Part shown: in pieces, positions 6,387-58,266 of the stretch
Layout of the letters: each line of letters begins with the position of its first letter
How positions within the stretch are numbered: the stretch's first letter is position 1
Assembly (NCBI GenBank): GCA_944384835.1
Contig: CALWUU010000043.1
Coordinates: 50,004-114,003, forward strand
DNA: 64,000 nt
From: an uncultured Clostridia bacterium
GTDB lineage: Bacteria; Bacillota; Clostridia; Oscillospirales; Acutalibacteraceae
Reading direction: 5' to 3'
Notes under the pieces: model-generated
Databases searched by the model: none
What the model was told of the DNA's origin: nothing
Seen by the model: the letters and a program-made list of their open reading frames with translations, nothing else
Position numbers and translations under genes: made by a program

Positions 6387-7295
6387 TCATACATCTTGTT
6401 TATTTTTAGTTTGTCTGCGTTTTGATTCATAAAAAGCCAAACGGGTACTCTTCATTTGTCCTTTTCCAAAAGGCGTTTTGATTTTAATGATTTTCGAATT
6501 CAAATGCTCTTGTTCATCTTCTGTTTGAATAAATTGATTTTCCGGCTTTAAGATATGAGCAAGCAACCCGCAGTCTTTCATAGACAAATAATCAGGATAA
6601 CCAAATATGATATGATCCTGAAGATGTACGTCTATGGTTTCCATAGCGGCGTTTAGTTTTCTGGTTGCTATAATATCTCCCGGAGACGGCATAACATTTC
6701 CACTTGGATGATTATGTGCAATAATGGCCTCCGCCGCATTGTAAGTAGCCGCCAATGTAATGATTTTACGTATGTAGAGAGGTACTGTATTTACGTTACC
6801 TTCTGTTACAATTCCACAATATAATACACGATTTTTACTGTCCATTAGCACCAAAACTACCATTTCGTTTTTCCTGCCAATAAATTGGGGTGAAATAATA
6901 CTCATTGCAGAATTGGTATCATAAATACGCTCTTTATCAGAAGTTTGCGTATTGATGTAGTGACGGCTTAATTGCGGAATTAACTTTAATAAGATAGCAA
7001 CATTTTGAGTGATACCTTTTGTTTTAGTCAATTCTTCAATAGGCGCGTCGCACACACCGGATATTGTGCCAAAGCGGTCTAATAATTCATGGGCAATCGG
7101 ATTGGTATCTGCCCTTGGCAAACCGTAAAATAATAACAGCTCTAAAATTTGATGTTCTTCAAAGACGTCCAAATTGTGTTTCAAAAATCTTTGTTTTACA
7201 CGTTCTCTATGACCTTGGTGAACAGAACGTTCTTTTGTTTTTGTCTTTTTATGTTTCGGTTGACTACTTGCTGTTTCTTCATGTATTTCTGACAA
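6387..7295 (-). CDS. radC: RadC-family JAB-domain protein
   Basis: ORF 6387-7331. Contains the HNHPSG..PS..D JAMM motif and an N-terminal HhH-like region (ELLDRFGTISGV). A TTG at 7295 lies 5 nt after GGAGAGG, and ATG 7331 is the alternative start. The C-terminal tail is about 55 aa longer than a typical RadC. Confidence 0.85.
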   Translation of the reverse strand: MSEIHEETASSQPKHKKTKTKERSVHQGHRERVKQRFLKHNLDVFEEHQILELLLFYGLPRADTNPIAHELLDRFGTISGVCDAPIEELTKTKGITQNVAILLKLIPQLSRHYINTQTSDKERIYDTNSAMSIISPQFIGRKNEMVVLVLMDSKNRVLYCGIVTEGNVNTVPLYIRKIITLAATYNAAEAIIAHNHPSGNVMPSPGDIIATRKLNAAMETIDVHLQDHIIFGYPDYLSMKDCGLLAHILKPENQFIQTEDEQEHLNSKIIKIKTPFGKGQMKSTRLAFYESKRRQTKNKQDV

Positions 7296-42616: not shown

Positions 42617-44680
42617 TTAACCGTCCTTTCTTAAAGATTCTAATTGGCGCAGTACCGGGGAACAAAACAAATCAACTTTTCCGGCAACAGGCTTTAAAGT
42701 AATTCTGCAAATGTCACCGTCCTCAGTTTTCTCAATCAGATTTTGGTCTTTTAAAACATCCAAGGCCAATAACAATTTTGATAATGTCATACCGGACAAT
42801 TGCAATTGTTCCAATAATAACAAAATATGATGCTGCCAGCCGTTGCTGCTTCTTAAAAAACGATAAAGCGCCGCAAATTCATCACGGTTTGGAGTCATAT
42901 GCAAAAGCTCTTCACCAGTTAAGCATTCACCGCGTTTTACTTTTTCATACATACGGTATTCTAACAGCGTTTGTTCTTCATTTACCTGGGACAGCTTTAT
43001 ATCTTTGATAAATACAGACAAATTTTCCGTATTGCGGTATTCGTTGACTTCCAGCGTAACCGCTAAGTCTACCAAATCGCCCACTTGATAAGGAAAATCC
43101 TGTAATGCAGTACGAAATTTCAGACATTGAACTGTAGTATGATTTCTCTCAAGACGCAAGCGCAGGTGGTTCCCTCCGCCGATTGGCGTAATTTCTTTTA
43201 GTTCCATTCCGTAAAGTCCGAACACGGGAGACGGATTGTCCGTGCCAAACGGCTCCAGATAAGCAATCTGTTTGGGCATTTCAATTGTCAATGCGGCAGG
43301 ATTCAATTTACAGTCCAAGTGTATGGTTTGAGGAGGCATGTCTGTTGGCAGAGAAGCAGCAAACTCATTGATTTGTCTGCGAAACCGGAAGATATGTTCT
43401 GTTGGCATACTCAAACCGGCCGCCATTGGATGACCTCCGTATTTTGTAAGCAAAGGAGCGCAGTGGCAAATGGCATCAAATAAGGAAAATCCTTCTACGC
43501 TTCTGCCGGAAGCTTTTGCTTCATTGCCCGTATAGGAAATAACAATACTCGGTTTTCCAAACATCTCCGTAATACGGGAAGATACAATTCCGATCACGCC
43601 GTGATGCCAATCTTCCCCTTCTACCACAATCACACGCTCATACATGCGCTCAGGCTCGTCATGGAGCAGCTGCAACGCTTTTTCCGTAATTTCCGTTTCA
43701 ATCTTTTTTCTGGTGTCATTGTCATGGCAAATCTCCTGAGCAAGGGTCTGTGCCTGTTCCATATCTTCCGATAAAAGCAAACGAACCGCTCTGTCCGACG
43801 CGCCGATTCTGCCCGTTGCATTGATGCGCGGCACAATAGTAAAAGCGACATTGGTAGAAGTAAGTTCCTTGCCGCTCATGCTTGCTTGTTCCAGCAACGC
43901 GCAAATTCCGGGACGGTCGCTGTGTGACAACAACGGCAGACCCGCTTGCACAAGCGCGCGGTTTTCTCCCTTAAGGGACACAATATCTCCTACCGTACCA
44001 ACCGCTGCCAAATCTGCGTAATTTTCCAGTAAGGTGGTGATATCTGCCCCTTCACCTTCCAGCGCAGTAATCAGCTTAAATGTAACACCTACACCTGATA
44101 AGTCTTTAAACGGGTAGGTGCAATCTACACGGTGAGGGTCTACCACAGCCACAGCTTTGGGCAATATGTCTCTTGGACGGTGATGGTCAGTAATCACAAC
44201 ATCAATGCCCAATTGCGAAGCATAAACAACCTCATCGATGGAGGCAATCCCATTATCTACCGTAACAATCAGCTGTACTCCCTGCTCATGCAGTTGATCC
44301 AAAGCCTCTAAATTGAGACCGTAACCTTCCTGCTCCCTTAAAGGAATATAAAACATAACGTTAGCGCCGCAGGATTCCAAATACGAATACAGCATGGCAG
44401 TGGAAGTAACGCCGTCTGCATCATAGTCTCCATATACGCAAATAGTTTCAAAATGTTCAATTGCTCTTTGAATGCGGGCAACTGCACAATCCATATCTTT
44501 CATTAGAAAGGGGTCGGCAAATGATTTTGATACGTCAAATAACGCATCAATGTCATCTTTTGTATGAAAGCCGCGTATCTCCAACATCATAGCCAAAAAC
44601 GAAGGGTACTGCATTTCTTCCGCAATTTTAGCCGCCCTTGCCTTGTCCAGGGGGGACACGCTCCATTTTTTGATATTCAT
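42617..44680 (-). CDS. recJ: Single-stranded-DNA-specific exonuclease RecJ
   Basis: 687 aa. Contains DHH motifs (GDYDADGV, DNG, DHH) and a DHHA1 GGH motif. Confidence 0.95.
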   Translation of the reverse strand: MNIKKWSVSPLDKARAAKIAEEMQYPSFLAMMLEIRGFHTKDDIDALFDVSKSFADPFLMKDMDCAVARIQRAIEHFETICVYGDYDADGVTSTAMLYSYLESCGANVMFYIPLREQEGYGLNLEALDQLHEQGVQLIVTVDNGIASIDEVVYASQLGIDVVITDHHRPRDILPKAVAVVDPHRVDCTYPFKDLSGVGVTFKLITALEGEGADITTLLENYADLAAVGTVGDIVSLKGENRALVQAGLPLLSHSDRPGICALLEQASMSGKELTSTNVAFTIVPRINATGRIGASDRAVRLLLSEDMEQAQTLAQEICHDNDTRKKIETEITEKALQLLHDEPERMYERVIVVEGEDWHHGVIGIVSSRITEMFGKPSIVISYTGNEAKASGRSVEGFSLFDAICHCAPLLTKYGGHPMAAGLSMPTEHIFRFRRQINEFAASLPTDMPPQTIHLDCKLNPAALTIEMPKQIAYLEPFGTDNPSPVFGLYGMELKEITPIGGGNHLRLRLERNHTTVQCLKFRTALQDFPYQVGDLVDLAVTLEVNEYRNTENLSVFIKDIKLSQVNEEQTLLEYRMYEKVKRGECLTGEELLHMTPNRDEFAALYRFLRSSNGWQHHILLLLEQLQLSGMTLSKLLLALDVLKDQNLIEKTEDGDICRITLKPVAGKVDLFCSPVLRQLESLRKDG

Positions 44681-44829
44681 ACCGCCTACACCTTCCTATT
44701 CTTGTTTAATTGTAACATTTTTCGACTCTTTATTCAATCTATTTTCACAATTGTTCCGTTAAAAATGAGAAATTTTCTTATTTTTATCTATTTTATTTTA
44801 TTTCTGAAATAAACGAAAAATATTGGCAA

Positions 44830-44881
44830 ATAAAATAAAACAAAGGTGATATCATTGTACAAAACAACAATATCACCTTTG
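44830..44881 (-). terminator. Terminator after the exonuclease gene
   Basis: caaaggtgatat (44841-44852) pairs with atatcacctttg (44870-44881), followed on the minus strand by a T-rich run. Confidence 0.7.
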
Positions 44882-45805
44882 TCATATCATTTGGCTCTCT
44901 GCATTTTTTAAACCTGTTACTTGTGCAGTCAACTCTGTTCCGTTTTCTGTTTTTTCTGTATTTTCTTCTTCCTTATGGGGAAGGATACATTTTTTTACCA
45001 CCATGCCGTCATATTTCAATTTAAACTGTACCCTGCCAATAAAACGGTTATCACAATGTTTGCAGCGAAAATTAGCGCGATAGCTTTTATTTTTCAGCTG
45101 CCATTCGCCTTCGCGGGATGCTCTTCGCCCGCAGGCATCACAATGAAATATCATATCAGAACGTTTTATCAGAGGATTGTTCAAATCACAAATGATCATG
45201 GTTTTAAATGTGATCTTCTCATAAAAAGCGTCTGTTCTGGCATCCTGAATAAATGGAATCAATGTTTCTCTTTGATACAGCTTTTGTAAACATCGCAGAG
45301 ACAGCATACTATCATCCATTGCACGGTGGTGGGCAATATCTTCTTCATTGATTCCCAGCAGCTGCGCTGAAGTTGAAAGTCCCATTTGTTTTGTGGCATC
45401 GTAATGCAGCATTTGTTCACAGTAACATTGTAAATCAACATATTGTTTTAGGAATGGAATACGTTCACTGCCGCAAAAATAACGGCTGTTTTCAATGAGG
45501 GCTAAAATGTCAGACGTACCCCATGTCATTAAGACAGCGTCCCCCATCCATTTACGAAAACGGCTCATTACCTGCATAAACTGCAGACCGTTGGCCAGTT
45601 CTTCGTTTGTAATATTTGTCAGCGTTTTAATCTTTCCGCTGATTTTTTTGCCCACTTGCGGACGAACCAAAGCGTCAAAGGTATCCAGCACATGCAATTG
45701 TTCATCTACTTTTACTGCGCCGAATTCTATAATTTCATTCATAAAGCCTTTTAGACGCCGGCTATACGTTCCATTCCATTCCAAATCCAATATTACAAAG
45801 TTCAT
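44882..45805 (-). CDS. DEDDh 3'-5' exonuclease (KapD/ERI-1-like) with a C-terminal Cys4 zinc-ribbon module
   Basis: 307 aa. Contains ILDLEWN, IIEFGAV and HHRAMDDS. The C-terminus has HCDACG...N(20)...CKHCDN. Confidence 0.8.
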   Translation of the reverse strand: MNFVILDLEWNGTYSRRLKGFMNEIIEFGAVKVDEQLHVLDTFDALVRPQVGKKISGKIKTLTNITNEELANGLQFMQVMSRFRKWMGDAVLMTWGTSDILALIENSRYFCGSERIPFLKQYVDLQCYCEQMLHYDATKQMGLSTSAQLLGINEEDIAHHRAMDDSMLSLRCLQKLYQRETLIPFIQDARTDAFYEKITFKTMIICDLNNPLIKRSDMIFHCDACGRRASREGEWQLKNKSYRANFRCKHCDNRFIGRVQFKLKYDGMVVKKCILPHKEEENTEKTENGTELTAQVTGLKNAESQMI

Positions 45806-45817
45806 TGAATACTCCGA

Positions 45818-47635
45818 TTATTTTTTGCTAGATTTTTTCATACGAAGCTCTTTCGATAAAATCCGTTTTCTCATACGGATATTCTCAGGGGTTACTTCTA
45901 CCAGCTCATCATCTTTGATGAATTCTAAACATTGCTCAAGGCTTAAGTTGCTGTGAGGCGTTAATTTCAGCGCATCATCAGAACCGGAAGCTCTTGTATT
46001 GGTCATTTGTTTTTTCTTACATACGTTCACGGTAATATCTTCAGATTTTGGACTTACACCCACAATCATACCTTCATACACTTCAACGCCCGGACCGATA
46101 AACAAACGTCCGCGATCCTGCGCATTGTACAAACCGTAAGCGGTTGCTTCACCTGTTTCATGCGCTACTAAAGAGCCTTGTGCACGCTGGGGAATCTCGC
46201 CGCGAAAAGGTTCATATGAATCGAATACATGATTCATAATACCATTACCGTTGGTATCGGTCAAGAACTCTTGGCGATAACCCATCAATCCCCTTGCAGG
46301 AATTTTAAATTCCATGTGCGTCGTACCCGTATCTCTGGTACCCATATTGAGCAATTCCGCTTTGCGTCCGCCCAATTTTTCCATAACAGCTCCAACATAG
46401 CTTTCAGGTACTTCAATCATAAGATGCTCAATGGGTTCATATTTTTGCCCGTCAATTTCTTTATAAATTACATTTGGACTGGAAACTTGGAATTCAAACA
46501 ACTCCCTGCGCATATTCTCAATCAAAATAGAAAGATGCAATTCACCGCGGCCTGATACTTTAAAGGTATCGGCAGAATCGGTTTCTTCTACGCGCATGGC
46601 AACGTTAGTTTCCACTTCTTTAAACAGTCTGTCGCGAATATTACGAGAAGTAACATATTTACCCTCTCTTCCCGCAAACGGACTGTTATTGACCATAAAC
46701 ATCATGGTAACGGTAGGCTCGTCAATTTTTACAAACGGCAATGGCTCCACACAGTCAACCGCGCAGGCTGTTTCGCCGATATTCAAATCAGCAATGCCTG
46801 CAACCGCAATAATATCTCCTAGTTTTGCTGTTTCCGCTTCTACTTTTTTCAAACCCTGATATTGGAACAGCTTTGTAATTCTCGCATTTTTGGTACTTCC
46901 GTCCCTGCCGCAGACTACCACCGGCATACCTACTTTTACTTCTCCACGCTCTACACGTCCCACACCGATTCTTCCAACAAATTGGTCATAATCGATGTTG
47001 GAAAACAAAATTTGCGTTCCGCCGTTCATATCCCCTTGCGGAGCAGGAATTTCTTTTACAATGGTTTCAAACAACGGTTCCATATTATCGTTAGGCTCCA
47101 TTGGGTCATACATTGCATAGCCGTCACGTCCTGACGCATATACAACCGGGAATTCCAATTGGTCTTCATCTGCACCTAACTCGATGAATAAATCCAAAAT
47201 TTCATCTACCACTTCTGCCGGTCTTGCGCCTGGACGGTCAATCTTATTCACAACAACAATTGGCTTTTTGCCAAGACCTATCGCTTTTTTCAGTACAAAA
47301 CGTGTTTGCGGCATACAGCCCTCAAAAGAGTCTACCAGCAAAATAACGCCGTCAACCATCATCAAAATACGTTCTACCTCACCTCCAAAGTCAGCATGAC
47401 CCGGAGTATCTATAATATTGATTTTTGTGTCCTTATACATAACTGCTGTATTTTTTGCCAAAATGGTAATGCCGCGTTCCCGTTCAATATCGTTGGAATC
47501 CATAACACGGTCTTCCACTGTTTCATTGGTACGAAAAACGCCGCTTTGGCGCAGCAACTGATCAACCAATGTGGTTTTTCCGTGGTCAACGTGAGCAATA
47601 ATGGCAACATTTCTTAAATCTGTTCTTACATCCAT
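45818..47635 (-). CDS. typA: Translational GTPase TypA/BipA
   Basis: ORF 45818-47728. Start placed at ATG 47635 (MDVRTDLRNVAIIAHVDHGKTTLVD). Contains DTPGHADF and NKID. Confidence 0.96.
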   Translation of the reverse strand: MDVRTDLRNVAIIAHVDHGKTTLVDQLLRQSGVFRTNETVEDRVMDSNDIERERGITILAKNTAVMYKDTKINIIDTPGHADFGGEVERILMMVDGVILLVDSFEGCMPQTRFVLKKAIGLGKKPIVVVNKIDRPGARPAEVVDEILDLFIELGADEDQLEFPVVYASGRDGYAMYDPMEPNDNMEPLFETIVKEIPAPQGDMNGGTQILFSNIDYDQFVGRIGVGRVERGEVKVGMPVVVCGRDGSTKNARITKLFQYQGLKKVEAETAKLGDIIAVAGIADLNIGETACAVDCVEPLPFVKIDEPTVTMMFMVNNSPFAGREGKYVTSRNIRDRLFKEVETNVAMRVEETDSADTFKVSGRGELHLSILIENMRRELFEFQVSSPNVIYKEIDGQKYEPIEHLMIEVPESYVGAVMEKLGGRKAELLNMGTRDTGTTHMEFKIPARGLMGYRQEFLTDTNGNGIMNHVFDSYEPFRGEIPQRAQGSLVAHETGEATAYGLYNAQDRGRLFIGPGVEVYEGMIVGVSPKSEDITVNVCKKKQMTNTRASGSDDALKLTPHSNLSLEQCLEFIKDDELVEVTPENIRMRKRILSKELRMKKSSKK

Positions 47636-47729
47636 GTAAATACCTCTTTTAACTTGATAACATACAAATATCTCTGTCAATCTATGAGTACATATAGAAT
47701 TGACTTCATTTTTTCTTTCATTCAACAAA

Positions 47730-47762
47730 AAAGCGCCGGCATGCTTACCGACGCTTTTTTAT
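47730..47762 (-). terminator. Terminator after tRNA-Gly
   Basis: The minus strand reads aaaaaagcgtcgg-taagcat-gccggcgctttttt. Confidence 0.7.
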
Positions 47763-47767
47763 CAGAC

Positions 47768-47843
47768 TGGAGCGGATGACGAGGCTCGAACTCGCTACCT
47801 CCACCTTGGCAAGGTGGCGCTCTACCAGATGAGCTACATCCGC
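47768..47843 (-). tRNA. tRNA-Gly (anticodon GCC)
   Basis: The reverse complement is GCGGATGTAGCTCATCTGGTAGAGCGCCACCTTGCCAAGGTGGAGGTAGCGAGTTCGAGCCTCGTCATCCGCTCCA. It folds as a cloverleaf with anticodon loop TTGCCAA, a TPsiC arm GTTCGAGCC and an encoded CCA. Confidence 0.95.
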
Positions 47844-47863
47844 AGTTCCTTACCGCGATGATT

Positions 47864-47892
47864 ATTATATTACAGCTTTCAAAAAATGTCAA
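47864..47892 (-). promoter_or_regulatory. Consensus sigma-A promoter for tRNA-Gly
   Basis: The minus strand reads TTGACA (47892-47887), a 17-nt spacer, then TATAAT (47869-47864). Confidence 0.65.
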
Positions 47893-47986
47893 CTAGTTTT
47901 CCCATAATTTTTTGATATTGTTTTTCCATTTGATTTCTTATTCAATTTACAATATGATAGGATGAATAAAAAGAGCATGTCACGTT

Positions 47987-48019
47987 AAAATTGCTTTGCT
48001 ATTTTGAATGTGATATAAT
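47987..48019 (+). promoter_or_regulatory. Candidate promoter of the dnaD-like gene with a near-palindrome AAATTGC-N3-GCTATTT
   Basis: TTGCTT (47991-47996), a 17-nt spacer, then TATAAT (48014-48019). The upstream GTTAAAATTGCTTTGC matches the two minus-strand module promoters. Confidence 0.5.
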
Positions 48020-48036
48020 TTGAACGAGGTGTTTCG

Positions 48037-49125
48037 ATGAAATTTTCAATTAATTTAGGGGCATGGAATTCTGTTTTTGCAGTTCCTGCGCAAGTAGTAG
48101 ATCAACATTTAAAATTAGCAGGCGGCGTTCATTTGAAAGTGCTGTTATGGCTATTGCGCCATGCAGGCACGGAAGTGGACATTGCTGATATTTCAAAAGC
48201 GCTTGGTATTGGAACTGCCGATATTAAGGATGCAATGCAATATTGGGCGGCAGCCGGTCTGATTGCGGATTTTTCCTGCGATTGCGACCAAGTCACCCTC
48301 ACACCTGTGATGCCAGAATCTACAGGCTCTGAAAATATTGCTTCAAAAGTATCCGCCTGTGTACAGGCAGATACTTCAAACGAACCCTCCCGTTCAGAAA
48401 TCATCGAACATGCCGTTTCTGTACATACCCTGACGGAACCACAGAAAGAAAAGCAAACGGAAAAGCCGGCAAAAACTTCTATTCGCATGAAAAAACCGGA
48501 TGGAATTTATATTGCCCAGCGAACTGCTGAATGTGCGGAAATCGGATTTTTAATGCAGGAAGCACAGCAAATTTTGGGACGTGCTATCTCACCTGCTTTG
48601 TCCTCTGCTTTGCTTATGATTCATGACGACTACGGTTTGCCTGTTGAAGTGATTATTATGCTTTTGATGTATGTAAAAAGCATTCACAAAGATAATACCA
48701 GCTATATTGAAGCGGTCGCAAGAAATTGGGCTGCCGAAGAAATCAACACCCATGAAAAAGCAAACGAGAAATTAAATCAGTTATCTTTGATCGCAAAATC
48801 ATGGCGCTGTATTGAACAAATATTGGGCATTAACCATCGTTCTCCCAGCGCCAAAGAAGAAGAATATACTCAACGTTGGATGCATCAATGGAATTTTACA
48901 GCCGATATGATACGCGAGGCTTACGAGCGCTGTGTAAACGCAACCGGAAAGCTTAGCTTACATTATATGAATAAAATTTTAGAACGCTGGCACAAAGCGG
49001 GTATTACTACCCCAAAGCAAGCCGCATTGGAAGCTGGTGAAAAAGCTGCAAAAGAACAGGAAAAACAAAAACCAACCTATGATTTGGAAGAATATGAAAA
49101 AATAGATTTAAGCGAATTTATGTAA
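48037..49125 (+). CDS. DnaD-domain replication initiation / helicase-loading protein (B. subtilis DnaB/DnaD-like)
   Basis: 362 aa with an N-terminal winged-helix-like region and two DnaD/DnaB_2-type repeats (..IEAVARNWAAEEI.., ..MNKILERWHKAGITT..). Confidence 0.8.
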   Translation: MKFSINLGAWNSVFAVPAQVVDQHLKLAGGVHLKVLLWLLRHAGTEVDIADISKALGIGTADIKDAMQYWAAAGLIADFSCDCDQVTLTPVMPESTGSENIASKVSACVQADTSNEPSRSEIIEHAVSVHTLTEPQKEKQTEKPAKTSIRMKKPDGIYIAQRTAECAEIGFLMQEAQQILGRAISPALSSALLMIHDDYGLPVEVIIMLLMYVKSIHKDNTSYIEAVARNWAAEEINTHEKANEKLNQLSLIAKSWRCIEQILGINHRSPSAKEEEYTQRWMHQWNFTADMIREAYERCVNATGKLSLHYMNKILERWHKAGITTPKQAALEAGEKAAKEQEKQKPTYDLEEYEKIDLSEFM

Positions 49126-49137
49126 GGAGGGACTGTT

Positions 49138-50121
49138 TTGGGATACAGCCGTGAAATTTATGATGAGGCCATGGCCATGGTAAATGGAAACCGTGCGAAA
49201 GCAATGGAAGAATGTAATTTGCGCAAAACAGCATTTTACGGGCAATATCCTCGCGCGGCAGAAATTGAAACAGAATTAGCAGCAACGGCAATTGAAGCTG
49301 CAAGAGCAGTATTAAACGGCGCTCATGCAAAAGAACAGCTAGCGTTATTGAAACAAAAAAATCTTTCCCTGCAAAATGAGCGTATTTCGCTGTTACAAAA
49401 AGCAGGACTTCCCGAAACGTATTTGGAGCCTTCCTTTTCATGCAATATTTGTAAGGATGAAGGATTTGTTGACGGCAGAATGTGCAGTTGCTTAAAAAAG
49501 CTAATGCGCATACAAGCATGCAATCAACTAAACGCTTCTACCCCCCTTGCGCTGTGCACCTTTGACAATTTTTCTTTGTCCTACTATCCAAACGAACCTT
49601 CTGACAGCGGTATTTCTGCTTATCAGCAAATGGAGCAAATTCTGCGTTATTGCAAAACGTATGCAAATCAATTTTCTATGAATGCTCCAAATCTGTTAAT
49701 GCAAGGCGGAACCGGCTTGGGAAAAACACACTTATCCTTAGCAATTGCACATGAGGCTATTGAAAAAGGATACGGCGTGATTTACGGTTCCGCACAAAAT
49801 ATGGTTACCAATTTGGAAAAAGAACGCTTTCAAAAAGGCAATGAACAACAGGACACCAACCAACTGATGCTGCAATGTGATTTATTAATCATAGATGATC
49901 TTGGAACGGAATTTTCCACTTCATTTGTAACCGCTGCAATTTACAACATTGTAAATACAAGGCTAATGACACATAAACCAACTATTATCAGTACCAATTT
50001 ATCTATGAAAGAATTAGAAGAACGTTACACAGAGCGTTTTGCTTCCCGTATTTTAGGCAGTTATATTCCTCTGTTTTTCCGAGGAAAAGATATCAGACAG
50101 CAGAAAAGACGTAAAAAATAA
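49138..50121 (+). CDS. dnaI: DnaI/DnaC-type AAA+ helicase loader
   Basis: 327 aa. TTG start after AAGGAGG. Has an N-terminal Cys cluster (CNICKDEGF..CSC), Walker A GGTGLGKTHL and Walker B LLIIDDLG. Confidence 0.85.
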   Translation: MGYSREIYDEAMAMVNGNRAKAMEECNLRKTAFYGQYPRAAEIETELAATAIEAARAVLNGAHAKEQLALLKQKNLSLQNERISLLQKAGLPETYLEPSFSCNICKDEGFVDGRMCSCLKKLMRIQACNQLNASTPLALCTFDNFSLSYYPNEPSDSGISAYQQMEQILRYCKTYANQFSMNAPNLLMQGGTGLGKTHLSLAIAHEAIEKGYGVIYGSAQNMVTNLEKERFQKGNEQQDTNQLMLQCDLLIIDDLGTEFSTSFVTAAIYNIVNTRLMTHKPTIISTNLSMKELEERYTERFASRILGSYIPLFFRGKDIRQQKRRKK

Positions 50122-50128
50122 AAATAGA

Positions 50129-50156
50129 GCAGTCTGAACAGACTGCCTTATTTTTG
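50129..50156 (+). terminator. Terminator after dnaI
   Basis: gcagtctg and cagactgc form a hairpin, followed by CTTATTTTTG. Confidence 0.55.
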
Positions 50157-50170
50157 TGGAAAAAAGAAAA

Positions 50171-50215
50171 AGGAATTACCTATTTACATCCCCATGAAAT
50201 AGGTAATTCCTTTTA
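50171..50215 (-). terminator. Terminator after agrB
   Basis: aggaattacctattt (50171-50185) pairs with aaataggtaattcct (50197-50211) in a 15-bp stem. A T-run follows on the minus strand. Confidence 0.8.
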
Positions 50216-50812
50216 TTAAATTGCTGTTCTCTTTTTTACCGCATCTGCAATTTTAGAAATCCCCACTAAAATTGAGACAGTTGCCACAGCTAACATAATG
50301 AAAACGGCATAACGCTGTGTTTGAGAGAAACAGCAAAGCACTGCAAATATGATGCTGTACAAGCTAAGAATAACTTTTACCTTAGCCTTACATTTTTTCA
50401 CTTCGGGTTCTGATAACGGTTTATTCTTATCTTCAACCGGAGCTATAAACAGCACGGTCAAAGCGCAACATGCAAACAGGAGAGTAATAATAAGTAATTG
50501 TAGTATGGTGCTGATATAAACACCTAGAAAAACACTAAATCCAAATAAAAGGACTGAACTAATGTAACATTTCAAGTGACTGCCAGCATGAAAGCCACCT
50601 GAAAAAGTACGTAAGGGAATAAAGAATAAGAGATAAATAATGCTTTCAATGATACATTGAAAAATGGCTCCAATAATTAAACATGTTGCGATACCGAACG
50701 CTTGTGACAGCATCAAGCCAAATGCAAAAGTGAAGAAAGCTGATTCATCTTCGGGAATAATTTTCCCTTTTACAGATGCAGCTACGCATTTCTCAGCAAG
50801 CTTTGTAATCAT
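50216..50812 (-). CDS. agrB: Accessory gene regulator B (AgrD-processing membrane peptidase)
   Basis: ORF 50216-50854. Start placed at ATG 50812 (MITKLAEKCV), which overlaps the agrD2 TGA stop as ATGA. Polytopic membrane protein. LRTFSGGFHAGSHLKC has His and Cys 7 residues apart, like catalytic H77/C84 of S. aureus AgrB. Confidence 0.88.
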   Translation of the reverse strand: MITKLAEKCVAASVKGKIIPEDESAFFTFAFGLMLSQAFGIATCLIIGAIFQCIIESIIYLLFFIPLRTFSGGFHAGSHLKCYISSVLLFGFSVFLGVYISTILQLLIITLLFACCALTVLFIAPVEDKNKPLSEPEVKKCKAKVKVILSLYSIIFAVLCCFSQTQRYAVFIMLAVATVSILVGISKIADAVKKRTAI

Positions 50813-50958
50813 GTTTGAAACTGATTGGGGATTGCTGGAATATAAGGTTGGCACAACATAAAATAGTATGCCGAATTTACGTTGCCCATTGTGGCTGCGA
50901 AAGCTGTACCTGTAGAAATTTGTACAATCTTCTCAAAAAGGTTACGATTCGTTTTCAT
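50809..50958 (-). CDS. agrD: AgrD-like autoinducing-peptide precursor 2 (49 aa, non-canonical Cys position)
   Basis: Hand-translated and not in the ORF track: MKTNRNLFEKIVQISTGTAFAATMGNVNSAYYFMLCQPYIPAIPNQFQT. GGAGG lies 9 nt upstream of the ATG. It aligns without gaps to AgrD-like 1. Confidence 0.7.
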   Translation of the reverse strand: MKTNRNLFEKIVQISTGTAFAATMGNVNSAYYFMLCQPYIPAIPNQFQT

Positions 50959-51104
50959 ATTTTCATACCTCCACAAAAGTTTGACATCCTGTTATGCCAA
51001 ACATTTTATGAATACCAAAGATACTGCTATATTAATTCTTTGGGTGTTTCCCTTACACGATCTGTAAGAGAATGAATCATTTTCATATTTTCAATAGCGA
51101 GAAA

Positions 51105-51254
51105 TTATTTTTGGAATCTTTTTGGAAGTGCCGGTACTTTTGGCTGATGCAACATAAATGTACATGCAGAGTTAACATTGGATACTGCTACTTTTGCTGC
51201 TGCCTCTGTAGCTGCTTTCATAACTTTGTTTGTGATTTTGTTTGTGATTTTCAT
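51105..51254 (-). CDS. agrD: AgrD-like autoinducing-peptide precursor 1 (49 aa)
   Basis: Hand-translated and not in the ORF track: MKITNKITNKVMKAATEAAAKVAVSNVNSACTFMLHQPKVPALPKRFQK. GGAGG lies 8 nt upstream of the ATG. The SAC-x4-HQP..P pattern matches clostridial AgrD (Cys plus 4 ring residues, then a HQP/EP tail). Confidence 0.8.
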   Translation of the reverse strand: MKITNKITNKVMKAATEAAAKVAVSNVNSACTFMLHQPKVPALPKRFQK

Positions 51255-51322
51255 TCTCATTTCCTCCAAATATTTTTATGAATTAATTGGCTTTATCAGC
51301 CTACATAAATTATAAAAGAAAA

Positions 51323-51358
51323 ATGCGACATTTGGGAAAAAACGTCGCATTTTGCTTT
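51323..51358 (-). terminator. Hairpin with T-run between kinase 2 and agrD1 (terminator or attenuator)
   Basis: The minus strand reads aatgcgacg-N12-tgtcgcatt followed by TTTTCTTTT. A TATAAT (51314-51309) follows immediately. Confidence 0.5.
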
Positions 51359-51419
51359 TTAGTGTGACTGAACTTCACACTCGTTCATATTTTATTCATA
51401 AACTCTGCATATTATGAAG

Positions 51420-52751
51420 TTATTTTTGTTCATTAAGTAATGGAATTGAAATTGCAAGTGTAAAGATTGTGTCACTATGATCAATACTTATAATACCATT
51501 ATATTTTTCGACAGCCATTTTAATATTCTCTACTCCAAACCCATGATTGTGTTTATCCAATTTAGAAGAAACAAGCTTTTCATTTTCATAAATCAAATTA
51601 TTTTGTTTTGTGTTTTCTATAATAATACTTAAAATATCATTTGTGCGTTTTACTTCTAAAATAATTTTCTTTTCACCATGTTGTATTTCACTGCATGCTT
51701 TTACGGCATTATCCAATGCGTTTGCAAAAATAGTACAAGTATCAATATATTTTAAAAAGGATAAATCATTGTACAAAATTTGTTTTTCAAATGTAATTCC
51801 CTGTTCGTTACAAGTTTTCTCCTGCTCATATAAAATCACATCAAATGCAGTATTATTTACGCGAAAACTAGATGCCGCCATTTGCTGGCTCATCTGTGTT
51901 TGCAATTCATGCATATAATTCAACGCTTTATCTTTACTGTCTGTGTGATATAACCGTTCCAGTGTAGTAATGTGATTTTTAAAATCATGCAATTGTTTTC
52001 GACTTTCATTCAAACCTTTTTCAATTTGTTTATAGTAACTTGCTTGGATTCGCTGCATTTCTTCAGCTTCCCGCAATTGATTTTCCAACTCATATTTTCT
52101 TAAATTTCTGTCATAAATAAAGAACACTGCTATATTACATAAAATTAATCCAAAACAAACTAAAGACATAAAAATTTTATGACTTTCATCTTTCGGCACA
52201 TATGCCTCCAATTTAACCATTAAAATAATATTTGCAATCGTTACAATAGGTAACGTAAATAAAAGCAATACTTCTTTTCCACTTTTGGCATATTTTCTAT
52301 CTTTGGTAAATATAAAAATAATTCGGATAATAATAAATAATAAAACTTTGCTAATAATGGTCATAGCTAACCTGGCCGTGGGTATCTGTATTACCATTGT
52401 TAAATTTTCTCCGAATATCCATGATGTCAAAATAATAACAAAAAATTCAAAGAATATAGATAACGTGGCTACCAGTACCGATAGAAAGAATTTTACCAAT
52501 AATTTTCCCTTATAGAAAACAATTGCCATAGATAAATTTAATATAACTGCAACAATTACATTAAGCCAAAATATTCCTAAAAAGTTGATACAAGCTAAAC
52601 TGACACCACATACCAGAACACTAATCGCTTTTATTATTATATCTGGTTTAGATGTTCCCCATTTATCTAATAAAAAATGATGAAATAACATCAATACAAT
52701 TAAAAAATCAAAACAACATAAAAATGACTGTATTATAATTTCGTACATCAT
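51420..52751 (-). CDS. AgrC-like sensor histidine kinase 2 (HPK10 / GHKL, polytopic sensor)
   Basis: 443 aa with 6-7 N-terminal TM segments. Contains H box HDFKNHITTLERL, N box FANALDNAVKAC and G box HGFGVENIKMAVEKYNG. Confidence 0.88.
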   Translation of the reverse strand: MMYEIIIQSFLCCFDFLIVLMLFHHFLLDKWGTSKPDIIIKAISVLVCGVSLACINFLGIFWLNVIVAVILNLSMAIVFYKGKLLVKFFLSVLVATLSIFFEFFVIILTSWIFGENLTMVIQIPTARLAMTIISKVLLFIIIRIIFIFTKDRKYAKSGKEVLLLFTLPIVTIANIILMVKLEAYVPKDESHKIFMSLVCFGLILCNIAVFFIYDRNLRKYELENQLREAEEMQRIQASYYKQIEKGLNESRKQLHDFKNHITTLERLYHTDSKDKALNYMHELQTQMSQQMAASSFRVNNTAFDVILYEQEKTCNEQGITFEKQILYNDLSFLKYIDTCTIFANALDNAVKACSEIQHGEKKIILEVKRTNDILSIIIENTKQNNLIYENEKLVSSKLDKHNHGFGVENIKMAVEKYNGIISIDHSDTIFTLAISIPLLNEQK

Positions 52752-52805
52752 TTTTTAATACTCCTTCAAATAGCTTTGGTTAAAAAGCTATAAAATCTTT
52801 ATATA

Positions 52806-54125
52806 TCAAGCGGGCAGCGGAACTATTACTGCCAAAATAAAGCTGTCCTGTGTGTATTCAATACTAACCAATCCATGATATTTTTCAACTGCCATTTTAA
52901 TATTTTCTATCCCAAAGCCATGATGTTCCTTATTAGCTTTAGTTGTAAAAAAACGGTTGTTACTTTCCAAAATTTGATTCTGTTTCGTATTTTTTATTAC
53001 GATACTAAGCATATCTTTTTGTCTTTTTAAAACCAGTTCAATCTTTCTTTTACCTGTTTTTATTTCACTGCAAGCTTTCACCGCATTATCTAACGCATTG
53101 GCAAATATGGTACAAGTATCCATATAAGACAGAAATGACAAATCATTATATAAAATTTGTTTCTCAAAGGTGATATTTAAGTCCTGACAGCGTTTGTTCT
53201 TTTCATATAGTATAACATCAAAAGCTGCATTTTTCACTTTAAAACTTGCCAAATCCATTTGTTCTTTCATTTGTTGTTGCAATTCTTGCATATAAGAAAC
53301 AGCTTTGACACTCTCTTTACCTTCATGCAAATGTTCCAATGTTGTAATATGGTTTTTAAAGTCATGCATTTGTTTCCTGCTCTCATTCAAACTTTTTTCC
53401 AACTGCATATAATAGTTCGCCTGCAGTCTTTGCATTTCTTGCGCTTGCCGCAGTTCATTTTCAAGTTCATATTTTTTTAAATTTTTATCATAGATAAAAA
53501 ATACTGCGATATTACATAAAATCAGTCCAATGCAAACAAAAGCCATTAGAATTTTGTGGCTTTCTTCTGAAGGCGCATGATATTCTAACTGCACCATTAA
53601 TATAATATTGGCTACTGTTACAATCGGCAATGTATAAAGTAAAAGAGATTCTTTTCCGATTTTAGTATATTTTTTACCTCTTTTTATCAAAAAAATAATA
53701 CGAACCAAGGTAAAAAGAAGAACCTTACTGATAATCGTCATAGGTACTTGCACAGAAGGAAGCGTAACTATAACCGTAAGGTTTTCACCAAATATAGCTG
53801 AACCCATAACCATAGTAATAAATTCTGATACTAGAGATAAAGTACACGTAACTACAGATAGAAAAACTTTAACTAACCATTTTCCCTGATAAAAAACACA
53901 TGATAAAAGAAAAGTTAATGTAAAAACAGTTAACACATTCCAAAGAGAATTTTGGAACGTGTTAATAAAAGTTAACGTAATAGAACAAACGAGAATACCC
54001 AAAAACTTAAAGAGAAACAATTTTCGAGATTGTTCCCACCTATCTTTTAGATAGTATTGCAAAAACATGATAAAAATACTGTACTCCACCACACATATCA
54101 GTATGCCAAACAGTAATTCAAACAT
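52806..54125 (-). CDS. AgrC-like sensor histidine kinase 1
   Basis: 439 aa paralog of kinase 2 with the same motif set (HDFKNHITTLEHL, FANALDNAVKAC, HGFGIENIKMAVEKYHG). Confidence 0.88.
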   Translation of the reverse strand: MFELLFGILICVVEYSIFIMFLQYYLKDRWEQSRKLFLFKFLGILVCSITLTFINTFQNSLWNVLTVFTLTFLLSCVFYQGKWLVKVFLSVVTCTLSLVSEFITMVMGSAIFGENLTVIVTLPSVQVPMTIISKVLLFTLVRIIFLIKRGKKYTKIGKESLLLYTLPIVTVANIILMVQLEYHAPSEESHKILMAFVCIGLILCNIAVFFIYDKNLKKYELENELRQAQEMQRLQANYYMQLEKSLNESRKQMHDFKNHITTLEHLHEGKESVKAVSYMQELQQQMKEQMDLASFKVKNAAFDVILYEKNKRCQDLNITFEKQILYNDLSFLSYMDTCTIFANALDNAVKACSEIKTGKRKIELVLKRQKDMLSIVIKNTKQNQILESNNRFFTTKANKEHHGFGIENIKMAVEKYHGLVSIEYTQDSFILAVIVPLPA

Positions 54126-54127
54126 AG

Positions 54128-54832
54128 CTATCCCCTTATGTATTTTTGAAACTTCATATTAAAATTGGTCATTCTGTCTCTTGCCAATTTAATTTCTGTT
54201 GAATAATCTAAAATAACCTTTGTTTTTGTAATGCTTGTAACGTGGTCAAAATTCACAATATAGCTCTTTTGAGGCATCTCGAATTGATCGGCAGGCAATG
54301 ACGACAGTAAATCATTCAATGAAGCCCCTGTTTCATACACTTGTTCTTTTGTATAAATAATTCTCTTTCTCTGATAAGATTCAATATAAATAATTTTGTT
54401 GATAGAAATAAAGCAATTTTCATATGCGCATTTTACCGCAATTTTTCTGTTAAGCTTTTTAAACTCCTGAATACAAGAAAGAACAGCTTCATTAAATTTG
54501 TCCTGAGCAATTGGTTTTACCAAGTACCTATGCGCATGCAAATGGTACCCTTCAGCAGCGTATTGCTCAAAAGAGGTAGTCAAAATAATGGTAGCGTCCA
54601 GTCCGTCTTTTACCAACTGTTTGCCAATCTCTATACTGTTTACTCCATTTTCCAGCTGAACATCTAAAAATAGAATGTCATAGATATTTTTAATATTCAA
54701 TAATTCCTCTGAAGTACAAATTTCATCAAGTTCATAATCTACATCATTGGAAATCGCAAACTCGTCCAGTTTATCGCGAATAATTAAACGATGAATTGCT
54801 TCGTCATCGCAAACGGCTATTTTTAGTAACAA
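54128..54832 (-). CDS. LytTR-family response regulator 2 (AgrA-like)
   Basis: 234 aa. TTG start overlaps the regulator 1 stop by 10 nt. The receiver has CDDE, FLDVQL and LVKP. The C-terminal domain is LytTR-type. Confidence 0.88.
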   Translation of the reverse strand: MLLKIAVCDDEAIHRLIIRDKLDEFAISNDVDYELDEICTSEELLNIKNIYDILFLDVQLENGVNSIEIGKQLVKDGLDATIILTTSFEQYAAEGYHLHAHRYLVKPIAQDKFNEAVLSCIQEFKKLNRKIAVKCAYENCFISINKIIYIESYQRKRIIYTKEQVYETGASLNDLLSSLPADQFEMPQKSYIVNFDHVTSITKTKVILDYSTEIKLARDRMTNFNMKFQKYIRG

Positions 54833-55557
54833 TTTCCGTCAACACCTTTACAAAAGCCTCTCAAGTACTTGTGAAACTTCATATTAAAATCGTCTATACG
54901 GTCTCTTGCCAGTTTTATATCAATGGTATGTTCCAATATCACTTTGGTTTTGGTTAAACTGGTTACACAGTCTAAATTCACAATATAACTTTTTTGCGGC
55001 ATTTCAAATTGCGTGGTAGGTAATTGCTCTAATAATTCCTGAAGCGATGCGCCTGTTTCATAAACCTGTTCCTTTGTATGGATCATTCTTTTTCGATGGT
55101 AAGATTCTATATAAACAATACTGTTAATAGAAATAAAGCAATTTTCATATGCGCACTTAACTTCTATTTTTCTATTAGATTTCTTAAAATCCTTAATACA
55201 AGATACTATCGCTTCATTAAAATTTGACTGTTGTATCGGCTTTATCAAATAGCGATGTGCCTTTAAATAATATCCTTCAGATGCATACTGTTCAAACGAT
55301 GTCGTGATGATAATAGTGGCGTCAATACCTTTTTGCAGCAATCGCTTTCCTACTTCAATGCCATTCATACCGTCTTCCAGTTGCACATCCAAAAATAGAA
55401 TATCATAAATATTTTCCATTTTCATCAATTCTTTTGAACTGGTAAATTCATCAAGTTCATAATCAATATCATTTGAAATTGCATAGGCATCTAACTTGTC
55501 ACGAATAATCAATCGATGAATCGCTTCATCATCACAAACAGCAATTCTTAACAACAT
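54823..55557 (-). CDS. LytTR-family response regulator 1 (AgrA-like)
   Basis: 244 aa. Receiver residues are conserved (CDDE, FLDVQL, LIKP) and the DNA-binding domain is LytTR-type. By eye it is roughly three quarters identical to regulator 2. Confidence 0.88.
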   Translation of the reverse strand: MLLRIAVCDDEAIHRLIIRDKLDAYAISNDIDYELDEFTSSKELMKMENIYDILFLDVQLEDGMNGIEVGKRLLQKGIDATIIITTSFEQYASEGYYLKAHRYLIKPIQQSNFNEAIVSCIKDFKKSNRKIEVKCAYENCFISINSIVYIESYHRKRMIHTKEQVYETGASLQELLEQLPTTQFEMPQKSYIVNLDCVTSLTKTKVILEHTIDIKLARDRIDDFNMKFHKYLRGFCKGVDGNCY

Positions 55558-55666
55558 TCCAGCAACACCTTTTCATTATAGTGAAATAATTATTTTCATA
55601 CCTGAATCATTTTGAATAGTATTTACTGCTATAATTTGAAATAAAATCCAATTTTGGATTATTTCT

Positions 55667-55695
55667 ATTATAAAAACAAATATTGAATATGTCAA
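55667..55695 (-). promoter_or_regulatory. Consensus sigma-A promoter of the regulator/kinase operon
   Basis: The minus strand reads TTGACA (55695-55690), a 17-nt spacer, then TATAAT (55672-55667). Confidence 0.6.
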
Positions 55696-55752
55696 AAAAT
55701 TTAACATATTTTTCTTAAATTGGGAAGAAATTTACTGAATATGTCAAAAAAT
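55684..55752. repeat. 17-nt direct repeat TGAATATGTCAAAAAAT (two copies, 52-nt period)
   Basis: Exact copies at 55684-55700 and 55736-55752. Each contains the TTGACA hexamer on the minus strand. Confidence 0.85.
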
Positions 55753-55831
55753 GTCGTTTAGCCATGTTTTAAATTTGCAGCAGCTTTTTTAACTGCCGCA
55801 GTATAAAAACATTATCATAGATTTTTATCTG

Positions 55832-56962
55832 TTATACGTCTGCCAATTCGCCAAGGCTTTTGGCTTTTAAGTATGCATTGATAAACCCGTCAATGTCCCC
55901 GTCCATGACCGCATTAATATTACCCATTTCATAATTGGTTCTATGGTCTTTGACAAGTGTATAAGGCATAAATACATAAGAACGAATTTGACTTCCCCAG
56001 CCAATTTCTTTTTGCTCACCTTTAATATCTTCAATTTTATCCAAATGTTCACGCTCTTTAATTTCCATTAATTTGGAAACAAGCATTTTCATTGCTGTTT
56101 CACGGTTTTGATGCTGGCTGCGCTCTACTTGGCATGCCACAACAATATTAGTCGGTATATGGGTAATGCGAACCGCCGAAGACGTTTTATTTACCTTTTG
56201 ACCGCCGGCACCGCTGGCACGATAAACATCAATACGCAAATCATCCGGATTAATGTCCACTTGGATATTATCATCAATTTCCGGCATAACCTCTAAAGAA
56301 GCAAAAGAAGTATGACGTCTGCCGGAAGAATCAAAAGGAGAAACACGAACCAAACGGTGCACACCTGCTTCGCTTTTTAAAAAGCCGTATGCGTTGGTTC
56401 CCTCTATTAATACAGATGCGCTTTTTAACCCTGCCTCTTCTCCGTCCAAATAATCCAATGTTTTTACTTGGTAACCATGACGTTCACCCCAGCGGCAGTA
56501 CATACGGTATAACATTTCCGCCCAATCCTGCGCTTCGGTTCCTCCTGCGCCTGCATGAAACGTTAGAATTGCATTATTCCCATCATATTCTCCTTGCAGC
56601 AAAGTAGAAAGCCGCTGTACTTCCAGTTCTGAATGGAAGTGTTCAAACTCAGACTGTGCTTCTTCCAATATAGAGAGGTCTTCTGCCTCATTTCCCAGTT
56701 CTATTAAGGTTTGAATATCATCAAACATTTGTTTTAAGGCGTTATATTTTGCCACTTTATTTTTTAAAGTACTGGTACGCTGCAATACTTTTTGAGAATG
56801 CGCCATATCATTCCAAAATTCCGGTTCAGCCGCCTGCGCCTCCAACTGTTTAATCTCTTCTTCTGCCGCTTTTAAATCCAAAGCTTCTTCCAAATCAGAC
56901 AAATCCGGTTTCAGTTCCTCTAAAGCTAATTTTAATTCTTCAAATTGAAGCATTTCTATCAT
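55832..56962 (-). CDS. prfB: Peptide chain release factor 2
   Basis: 376-aa uninterrupted ORF with SPF and GGQ motifs (VSPFDS, SGAGGQKVNKT). ATG 56953 is an alternative start. No +1 frameshift site is needed. Confidence 0.95.
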   Translation of the reverse strand: MIEMLQFEELKLALEELKPDLSDLEEALDLKAAEEEIKQLEAQAAEPEFWNDMAHSQKVLQRTSTLKNKVAKYNALKQMFDDIQTLIELGNEAEDLSILEEAQSEFEHFHSELEVQRLSTLLQGEYDGNNAILTFHAGAGGTEAQDWAEMLYRMYCRWGERHGYQVKTLDYLDGEEAGLKSASVLIEGTNAYGFLKSEAGVHRLVRVSPFDSSGRRHTSFASLEVMPEIDDNIQVDINPDDLRIDVYRASGAGGQKVNKTSSAVRITHIPTNIVVACQVERSQHQNRETAMKMLVSKLMEIKEREHLDKIEDIKGEQKEIGWGSQIRSYVFMPYTLVKDHRTNYEMGNINAVMDGDIDGFINAYLKAKSLGELADV

Positions 56963-57234
56963 CCTTTTATTTATCTCAATACCTAAATTATAATTAATTC
57001 ATGTACCTGCTTTAAATGCAAAAAATTTCCTGAATTAGTAACTGTTATATTATAGTAGAATTGCCCGAGAAAGTAAAGCGTATTCCAGTGATAATATATA
57101 GTTCAAAGGAAATTTAAAGCAAAACATTGCAGTTTACAAAATAATTAGGTACAATAAGAAAGAAATTGAACAATAACTATAATGCAAATTCACTTATTTT
57201 AATTTAGTATTATAGAGATATATTTCAGAAAGGC

Positions 57235-58266
57235 ATGGTATCTATTATGTCAAAGTATACGGGTTTAGAATGTCCTATCTGCAAAAATACATTTAAAAAT
57301 GATGATGATATTGTAGTTTGCCCTGAATGCGGCGCACCGTATCACAGAGCATGCTACCAAAAAGAAGGCCATTGCATTTATGAAGATAAACATGGAACTG
57401 ATCAAGACTGGCAGGGACAGGAACATGTACATCAAGAAGCCGGAGATAAAAAATGTCCTCGATGCGGTACTATCAATCCTTCCGATTCCTTATTTTGTTC
57501 CAAGTGCGGACAGTCATTAAGCTATGACAGTCAGGCACACGGACAAGCACCAACAGATTCTGAACAATCTTATACCCCGCCAACCCCTCCGCCGGGAGCC
57601 GGACCAAATGTCGGACCAACAGGCATGCCATATCCATTTGATCCAATGGGAGGCGTAAATCCCAAGGATCATATCGAAGGTATTGAAGCGGGAGATATGG
57701 CAAAATTTGTACAGACAAACACACCGTATTATATGGGAAGATTTTTAAATCTTTCTGCGTTCAAACGAGGTCGGTTCCATTTTGCTGCTTTTTTATTCGG
57801 CGGAGGCTGGTTTTTATACCGTAAACAATATGTAATTGGCATCATATTAACAGCATTTCAAATCATTTCTTCAGTGGCAATCAGTTTTTTACAGACATAT
57901 TATACGATTCCTTTGATGAATGAATTGCTGCCAAATGTAAATCAGGTCGGCAAATATTACTGGGGATTCATCCAGTCTTGGGACGCTCTTGCCGCCAAAT
58001 CTCCCTTAACGTTATTTTTGGTCATGCTGCCGACAATATTACTGTTCCTCCAATTGGTAGAACGGATTCTATGCGGTATTTTCGCCAACAAGCTGTATTT
58101 AAAGCATTGTGTCAAAGAGATTAATGAAATTAAAGTAAATACCACAACAACTCAAGAATATGAAACACAGTTGAAACAAAGAGGCGGCGTTAGCACAACA
58201 CTTGCATTTTCTCTCATGATTTGTTATTTTATTATTAATTTTATTCCCATGTTTTTTAACTTTTAA
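57235..58266 (+). CDS. Membrane protein with N-terminal zinc ribbons and a DUF2628-like TM domain
   Basis: 343 aa. Contains CPICK..CPECG..H..C, then CPRCG..CSKCG, a Pro-rich linker and the TM region FAAFLFGGGWFLYRKQY. ATG 57247 is an alternative start. Confidence 0.7.
   Translation: MVSIMSKYTGLECPICKNTFKNDDDIVVCPECGAPYHRACYQKEGHCIYEDKHGTDQDWQGQEHVHQEAGDKKCPRCGTINPSDSLFCSKCGQSLSYDSQAHGQAPTDSEQSYTPPTPPPGAGPNVGPTGMPYPFDPMGGVNPKDHIEGIEAGDMAKFVQTNTPYYMGRFLNLSAFKRGRFHFAAFLFGGGWFLYRKQYVIGIILTAFQIISSVAISFLQTYYTIPLMNELLPNVNQVGKYYWGFIQSWDALAAKSPLTLFLVMLPTILLFLQLVERILCGIFANKLYLKHCVKEINEIKVNTTTTQEYETQLKQRGGVSTTLAFSLMICYFIINFIPMFFNF

Follow-up and report, generated by a model that had tools for sequence, protein, structure and literature searches.

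What does an AgrD-like gene still contribute once the cysteine that closes its peptide ring has been replaced? The question is raised by the window, the whole stretch of 64,000 nucleotides of contig CALWUU010000043.1, which carries an agr-type operon for quorum sensing. This operon, from an uncultured species of gut Ruminococcaceae, has two regulators and two kinases, a pair of precursor genes and a single AgrB. The first precursor, D1, has the layout of a canonical AgrD, and the second, D2, carries a tyrosine at the ring position. We favour, with a probability of roughly 0.6, the reading that D2 is a redundant AgrD duplicate which no longer encodes a signal and has possibly been kept open as a leader open reading frame (ORF) for agrB. 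Below, W stands for the window in comparisons and L-numbers for the related loci or contigs compared with it. The elements on which the argument turns are as follows.

51105..51254, minus strand: agrD1 (D1), ORF of 49 amino acids (aa), TIGR04223 match
50809..50958, minus strand: agrD2 (D2), AgrD-derived ORF of 49 aa with Tyr31, Tyr32, Cys36 and Tyr39
50216..50812, minus strand: agrB, peptidase/cyclase, 198 aa, PF04647 match (E = 2.3e-34)
51263..51267, minus strand: Shine-Dalgarno (SD) sequence GGAGG of D1, 8 nt 5' of the ATG
50968..50972, minus strand: SD sequence GGAGG of D2, 9 nt 5' of the ATG

Two precursor genes in front of one agrB

A preliminary description of this DNA had reported two 49-codon ORFs that align without gaps, follow a GGAGG at a distance of 8-9 nt and share the motif NVNSA-xx-FML-x-QP-x-(V/I)PA(L/I)P. 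All of this was reproduced: both translations agree letter for letter on the minus strand (the strand had not been given), the spacings are 8 nt for D1 and 9 nt for D2, and the motif is present in both. BLASTP aligns the two proteins without gaps at 20 of 48 identical positions (42%), and the E-value of 1e-13 in this single comparison means that their resemblance is not due to chance.

By its sequence, D1 is a bona fide AgrD that adds a new member to the family; the ring predicted for it is CTFML. It scores 40.4 bits against TIGR04223, the cyclic lactone autoinducer precursor model (cut-off 19, E = 2.3e-10); no match was obtained with Pfam. The core reads SAC31TFML35 followed by HQPKVPALP, so the cysteine lies five residues before the AgrB cleavage site and the follower peptide, HQPKVPALPKRFQK, contains prolines. 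The expectation that D1 fits the clostridial pattern, with a CTFML ring cut before HQP, is in good agreement with the TIGR04223 match and with the parallel in Clostridium perfringens (PMC7300355). Cys31 and HQPK are invariant across all D1 orthologs, and the protein is nearly unchanged across the clade, with rings CTFML, CSFML, CSFLL or CTYLL, a follower HQPKVPA-x-PKRFQK and a ratio of nonsynonymous to synonymous substitution rates (dN/dS, omega) of 0.02-0.05 against congeners. D1 would thus be the working precursor, from which AgrB would cut after Leu35 and close the CTFML thiolactone. Some D1 relatives from the databases (among P0009, P0011, P0012, P0013, P0015, P0016 and P0018) have a tail that is frameshifted beyond FMLH, or carry unrelated inserts, N-terminal or internal; such oddities probably represent assembly errors or chimeric contigs and not biology.

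PF04647 covers 179 residues of AgrB, and R68, G73, H75 and C82 are invariant among 11 relatives; K129-N130-K131 is invariant as well. The spacing of the first four is that of R70, G75, H77 and C84 in Staphylococcus aureus, which are required for proteolysis there, and K129-131 corresponds likewise (PMC10196373).

D2 departs from this picture at the ring. As the preliminary description had deduced, position 31 is Tyr where D1 has Cys, the sole cysteine sits at position 36, and a canonical ring is impossible. AgrDs carry Cys or Ser at the conserved position, and the canonical orthologs of D2 carry Cys. D2 found no match in NCBIfam (E <= 10) or Pfam (E <= 1), so no AgrD profile recognises it. Its descent from AgrD genes is evident from the 42% identity to D1, from 63% identity to D2 orthologs that pass TIGR04223, and from a position relative to agrB that is identical in all loci.

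An artefact of sequencing or assembly was considered for the missing cysteine and can be practically dismissed. The exact D2 protein occurs in nine further public metagenome contigs from several samples and different assemblers, and D2 differs from its orthologs by at least 19 substitutions and no indels. In those nine contigs the depositors' gene finders call both small ORFs as well as the agrB that overlaps D2 by ATGA, and the exact D2 sequence is also present, nameless, in NCBI-derived protein sets.

Fate of D2 in related loci

Syntenic loci, located between prfB and dnaC, were reached through relatives of AgrB with 69-95% identity; eleven further contigs came from a pattern search with the start region of D2. 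Two loci are conspecific with the window, L001 (99.7%) and L002 (95.8%). The sister species, at about 86% nucleotide identity to the window over 14.6 kb, are the uncultured Ruminococcaceae UMGS404, UMGS454 and UMGS1071 (L017, L018 and L019). The states of D2 were:

L017/L047: canonical Cys, ring CSSML
L018/L048/L055, L049 and L054: canonical Cys, ring CSFML
L019/L050/L053: canonical Cys, ring CSFML, the same as that of their own D1
L058: canonical Cys, ring CNFML
Window species: ring lost by C31Y, with Y32, H36C and K39Y
L052/L057: ring lost by a 3-nt deletion of the Cys codon; QPK changed to QSI
L059: ring lost; ORF of 26 aa after an in-frame deletion of the ring region
L016: ring lost; ORF of 39 aa without the ring region
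L060: ring lost; uncalled ORF with Cys changed to Tyr and HQP to YVS
L011/L020/L061 and L062: ring lost; recognisable remnants with stops
L056: ambiguous; +2 frameshift in an A-run, possibly an error

Against TIGR04223, the canonical orthologs score 24-39 bits and pass, and the versions without the cysteine give no match. Since D2 of the sister species encodes an autoinducing peptide (AIP) core that matches or nearly matches the one in D1, D2 appears redundant. Read from these sequences, the capacity of D2 to form a ring has been lost repeatedly and independently in the clade. The preliminary description had raised the possibility that D2 is a distinct functional signal, which the comparison does not support, and had named visibly decaying orthologs as the observation that would speak against it; such orthologs are what we find in L016, L059, L052/L057, L060, L061/L011, L062 and possibly L056.

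It had also been asked whether the shifted cysteine recurs in orthologs. It does not; only the window's species has it. When 1.84 billion representative proteins were searched exhaustively by phmmer with the window's D2 as query, the only matches were D2 itself, one canonical D2 and one unrelated repeat protein. As this gave no second family with a shifted cysteine, we regard the shift as the state of a single species and not as a recurring design. A word-indexed homolog search returned the identical protein only, and for this reason could not show variation.

Substitution rates between the window and its congeners set D2 apart from the rest of the operon (dN/dS):

D2: 0.50-0.75 (dN 0.21-0.27)
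agrB: 0.12-0.14
HKa and HKb (the two kinases): 0.05-0.11
Flanking genes: 0.02-0.12

Canonical D2 genes compared over a long distance, against L058, give 0.15-0.21, so D2 is constrained where the ring is kept. To obtain the omega of the window's own branch, an ancestor inferred by parsimony was compared with the window's D2. The path comprises 19 nucleotide changes, with 12 replacement codons, two silent ones and no indel, and omega is 1.03 on this branch versus 0.24-0.54 on the sister branches.

Drift, a leader role or a new product

If D2 has ceased to encode a signal, as these rates suggest, its ORF may persist for the sake of the gene behind it. The D2 stop codon TGA overlaps the agrB start codon in the window (ATGA, 50812..50809), and the start, be it ATG, TTG or GTG, overlaps the D2 stop in the same way (ATGA, TTGA or GTGA) in W, L017-19, L058, L059 and L012. 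No SD motif lies within 18 nt of the agrB start in any of these; L016 has only a weak AGGGG about 10 nt upstream of agrB. D2 and agrB thus show the structure of a translationally coupled pair, with overlapping stop and start and a downstream gene without SD. The best-conserved part of D2 across species is its own SD and first codons, and the SD with the first six codons forms an exact match of 28 nt across the window, L016, L017, L018 and L019. The deletions in L052, L059 and L016, lineages that keep the D2 SD and start, are all multiples of three. A further observation concerns L012, where an ORF of 24 codons at approximately 6937..7004 (MQRKHTNFQGALCNLNKIPQQLFL) follows a G-rich SD and ends in GTGA on the GTG start of agrB; it looks like another shrunken D2 remnant that is still coupled to agrB.

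The sequence of events that we favour can be outlined as follows. D2, an old paralog of D1, lies immediately before agrB. In the window's species it would have drifted at a neutral rate, with replacement of the ring cysteine, the first follower residue His36 and Lys39, and because of these replacements it would no longer yield a canonical AIP; the new Cys36 would have arisen as a by-product of this drift and would not be the ring residue at a shifted place. For cleavage by AgrB in S. aureus, the first two residues of the follower are essential (PMC10196373), and by analogy H36C may also impair the cleavage of D2. Ribosomes translating D2 would deliver the translation of agrB by termination and reinitiation. 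The ORF, its strong SD and its frame would then have been retained because agrB, which has no SD of its own, starts inside the D2 stop. We infer such translational coupling from the arrangement of the two genes as the reason for the persistence of the D2 ORF.

Several points weigh against this account. The D2 ORF of the window still has its full length and an excellent SD, and it retains NVNSA, FML, QP and both follower PxxP motifs (PYIP and PAIP). Its replacements, if anything, favour conserved positions: eight of the 19 positions that are invariant in seven D1 and six canonical D2 proteins are replaced (K6, A15, K21, A23, C31, H36, K39 and R46), so that eight of the 12 replacements hit otherwise invariant positions (Fisher p = 0.04). 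This enrichment could reflect adaptive change. We did not accept it as a sign of positive selection, as the parsimony rule builds an ancestor that favours the window's state at variable positions and thereby undercounts changes there. The support for a leader role has its own limits. The three in-frame deletions amount to p ~0.04 only, and the overlapping stop is not independent evidence of coupling because the Met-Ile codons of agrB dictate it. An open D2 frame in the window's species proves nothing by itself, since a neutral simulation with 19 substitutions leaves it open in 58% of the runs. Finally, ten contigs from several samples carry one and the same D2, and so do both of the species' kinase-sensor allele groups. 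This identity is uninformative on constraint, because the search finds identical proteins by construction and because D2, like agrB and RRa (one of the response regulators), is nucleotide-identical (dS = 0) between W and L002.

The open frame in 58% of neutral runs and the omega of about 1 also suit a young pseudogene without any role, whose frame and SD are open by chance and whose agrB is translated independently; L011, L061 and L062 have D2 remnants with stops and presumably still express agrB. We consider such a pseudogene possible but unlikely. It leaves unexplained why agrB has no recognisable SD and uses TTG or GTG starts in several species, why the deletions in L052, L059 and L016 keep the frame together with the SD and start, why conservation within D2 is highest in the SD and the first six codons, and why 19 substitutions accumulated in the window without any indel.

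The same intact 49 codons, strong SD and retained motifs, with the changes concentrated on functional positions, might instead point to a new function, in which AgrB or another enzyme makes a non-canonical product that acts as a second signal, a decoy substrate or a kinase antagonist. Candidate products would be a linear peptide released after Leu35, a seven-residue lactone on Ser29 (SAYYFML), or a thiolactone with the shifted ring CQPYI. The two kinases and the two regulators are all intact and under purifying selection (omega 0.02-0.14), and Ser-lactone AIPs do exist; PMC8251862 describes them as rare and cites Hungateiclostridium thermocellum as an example. Those peptides close the ring without Cys by a Ser at the ring position, where the window's D2 has Tyr; the nearest serine of D2, Ser29, would give a ring of seven residues and is also present in D1, whose expected nucleophile is Cys31. 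The neutral omega on the window's branch, the restriction of the variant to one species among the representatives searched, the independent decay in at least five other lineages and the change of His36, the P1' residue invariant in all D1 and canonical D2, argue in the same direction, as does an AgrB that is 95% identical to that of species with canonical D2. Neither kinase sensor co-varies with the state of D2. Hence a new function seems improbable to us. We give even less credence to its more specific form, in which AgrB still binds and cuts the window's D2 and the non-canonical product serves as an orthogonal signal or inhibits either AgrB or one of the kinases. If true, it would document an evolutionary route from a redundant AIP precursor to new signal chemistry. 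Because the shifted cysteine looks like the result of drift in a redundant copy of the gene, it is a weak lead for such chemistry.

Kinases, gene order and known systems

The remaining features of the locus, with one tRNA gene nearby, are listed here.

56962..55832, minus strand: prfB, flanking gene
54823..55557, minus strand: RRa, LytTR response regulator, 244 aa, PF04397 and PF00072
54128..54832, minus strand: RRb, LytTR response regulator, 234 aa, PF04397 and PF00072
52806..54125, minus strand: HKa, AgrC-type sensor kinase, 439 aa, PF14501 (E = 1.5e-25)
51420..52751, minus strand: HKb, AgrC-type sensor kinase, 443 aa, PF14501 (E = 1e-23), weak match to staphylococcal AgrC
51361..51381: palindrome TGTGA-N7-TCACA, upstream of the promoter-like site of D1
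51320..51353, minus strand: terminator-like hairpin after HKb, overlapping the promoter-like site of D1
51309..51338, minus strand: promoter-like TTCCCA-18-TATAAT 5' of D1, a consensus match only
50979..51002, minus strand: stem-loop followed by UUUUG directly 5' of the D2 SD, terminator- or attenuator-like
50128..50147, strand unassigned: bidirectional terminator-like hairpin after agrB
47771..47843, minus strand: tRNA gene (Rfam RF00005, 65.7 bits) between typA/bipA and a dnaD-like gene

On the minus strand the operon reads RR-RR-HK-HK-D1-D2-agrB, and convergent dnaC-like and dnaD-like genes lie downstream of agrB. The assignment to the agr type, made already in the preliminary description, is borne out by the PF04647 match of AgrB (E = 2e-34), two HATPase_c_5 kinases and two LytTR regulators. 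PF14501 is found in both kinases, which combine a polytopic sensor with HATPase_c_5, and PF00072 with PF04397 in both regulators, as in two-component systems of the AgrC/AgrA type. The staphylococcal AgrC equivalog matches the kinases weakly, at 26-34 bits (cut-off 500).

It had further been suggested that each of the doubled kinases senses one product. The comparison does not bear this out: the sensor domains of HKa and HKb vary in step with one another, and to a large extent with D1, but do not follow the state of D2. Between W and L002, where D2 and agrB are identical, the sensors (aa 1-215) of both kinases are only 76-77% identical, and dS reaches 0.73 in HKa, 0.57 in HKb and 0.14 in D1, versus 0 in D2 and agrB; in the flanks it does not exceed 0.04, and the cytoplasmic domains of the kinases are 94-99% identical. 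Both sensors of the window are 91% identical to those of L018/UMGS454, another species. The sensors of L052, whose D2 has lost the Cys codon, are 94-99% identical to those of L017 and L054, which have a canonical D2. Position 2 of the D1 ring (Thr or Ser) mostly follows the sensor groups; the one exception seen is L054, with CTFML in the other group. Judged from these alignments, there is no evidence that ties either kinase to D2.

When the window is compared with L002, L017, L018, L019, L052, L054 and L016, the sensor domains of both kinases form allele groups that cross species boundaries; the species tree is followed instead by the regulators and by the cytoplasmic domains of the kinases. 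This pattern looks like agr specificity groups with trans-species polymorphism, in which the two kinases switch together. Single-system relatives at the same site always come with a D1-like peptide, and they keep either the HKa type (L014) or the HKb type (L011 and L012). The retention of different kinase paralogs implies an old duplication with differential loss. The order RR-RR-HK-HK is also not that of a tandem of RR-HK modules.

Upstream of D1, the sequence of the TTCCCA-18-TATAAT region is kept in related loci, and the TGTGA-N7-TCACA palindrome is kept even in the most distant syntenic loci (L011, L012 and L014). The palindrome is a candidate regulator-binding site, unlike the usual direct repeats of LytTR regulators. 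The stem-loop at 50979..51002 is conserved, with seven pairs, and compensatory changes are seen in it when six loci are compared. It might act as a leaky terminator or attenuator and set the ratio of D1 to agrB; hairpin and U-run could lower read-through into D2-agrB relative to D1. Reduced read-through from precursor to enzyme gene is common in operons for ribosomally synthesised peptides that carry post-translational modifications (RiPPs). An Rfam scan of 44000..58000 returned the tRNA only, and the D1-D2 spacer holds no known RNA family.

With agrBDCA of S. aureus the locus shares a small precursor, a membrane peptidase/cyclase with identical spacing of the catalytic R, G, H and C, an HPK10-type kinase and a LytTR regulator, as well as a hypervariable block within the species that consists of precursor and kinase sensor domains. 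It differs in its order, RR-RR-HK-HK-D-D-B, in which a single AgrB is accompanied by two copies each of regulator, kinase and precursor, and in a hypervariable block that excludes agrB and D2. The follower of AgrD in S. aureus is of the acidic DEVEVPKELTQLHE type, unlike HQPKVPxxPKRFQK in the window.

AgrD of C. perfringens has the same layout as D1, SAC-xxxx-HQP, with a five-residue ring (CLWFT) followed by His, and the 6-R peptide used there, CLWFTH, is the AIP ring plus the next residue (PMC7300355). The ring sequence differs, agrBD of C. perfringens lies apart from its two-component system, and D2 is without counterpart there.

The nearest precedent for two precursors is C. autoethanogenum, for which processing of AgrD1 and AgrD2 by a single AgrB1 has been proposed (PMC8748961); two AgrDs per AgrB is hence a known idea. 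That organism likewise has two AgrC-type kinases, and the PxxP of the follower is conserved. Its AgrDs both keep the ring residue, lie in separate operons each with its own kinase, and cause a phenotype when doubly deleted (PMC8748961), whereas the second precursor of the window has lost the ring cysteine and shows no co-variation with a kinase. Our literature search yielded nothing specific on tandem agrD genes, Cys-less AgrD, translational coupling of agrD and agrB, or agr systems of Ruminococcaceae.

Through this locus, an agr system in which kinases and regulators are doubled is documented for abundant, uncultured Ruminococcaceae of the human gut; its predicted AIP core, CTFML or CSFML, is clear and could be synthesised. 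Mining of genomes for such signals calls for caution, in that an AgrD-like ORF adjoining agrB is not necessarily a signal. For the family, it presents a duplicated RiPP precursor that decays repeatedly with its frame kept, plausibly to feed ribosomes to the processing enzyme.

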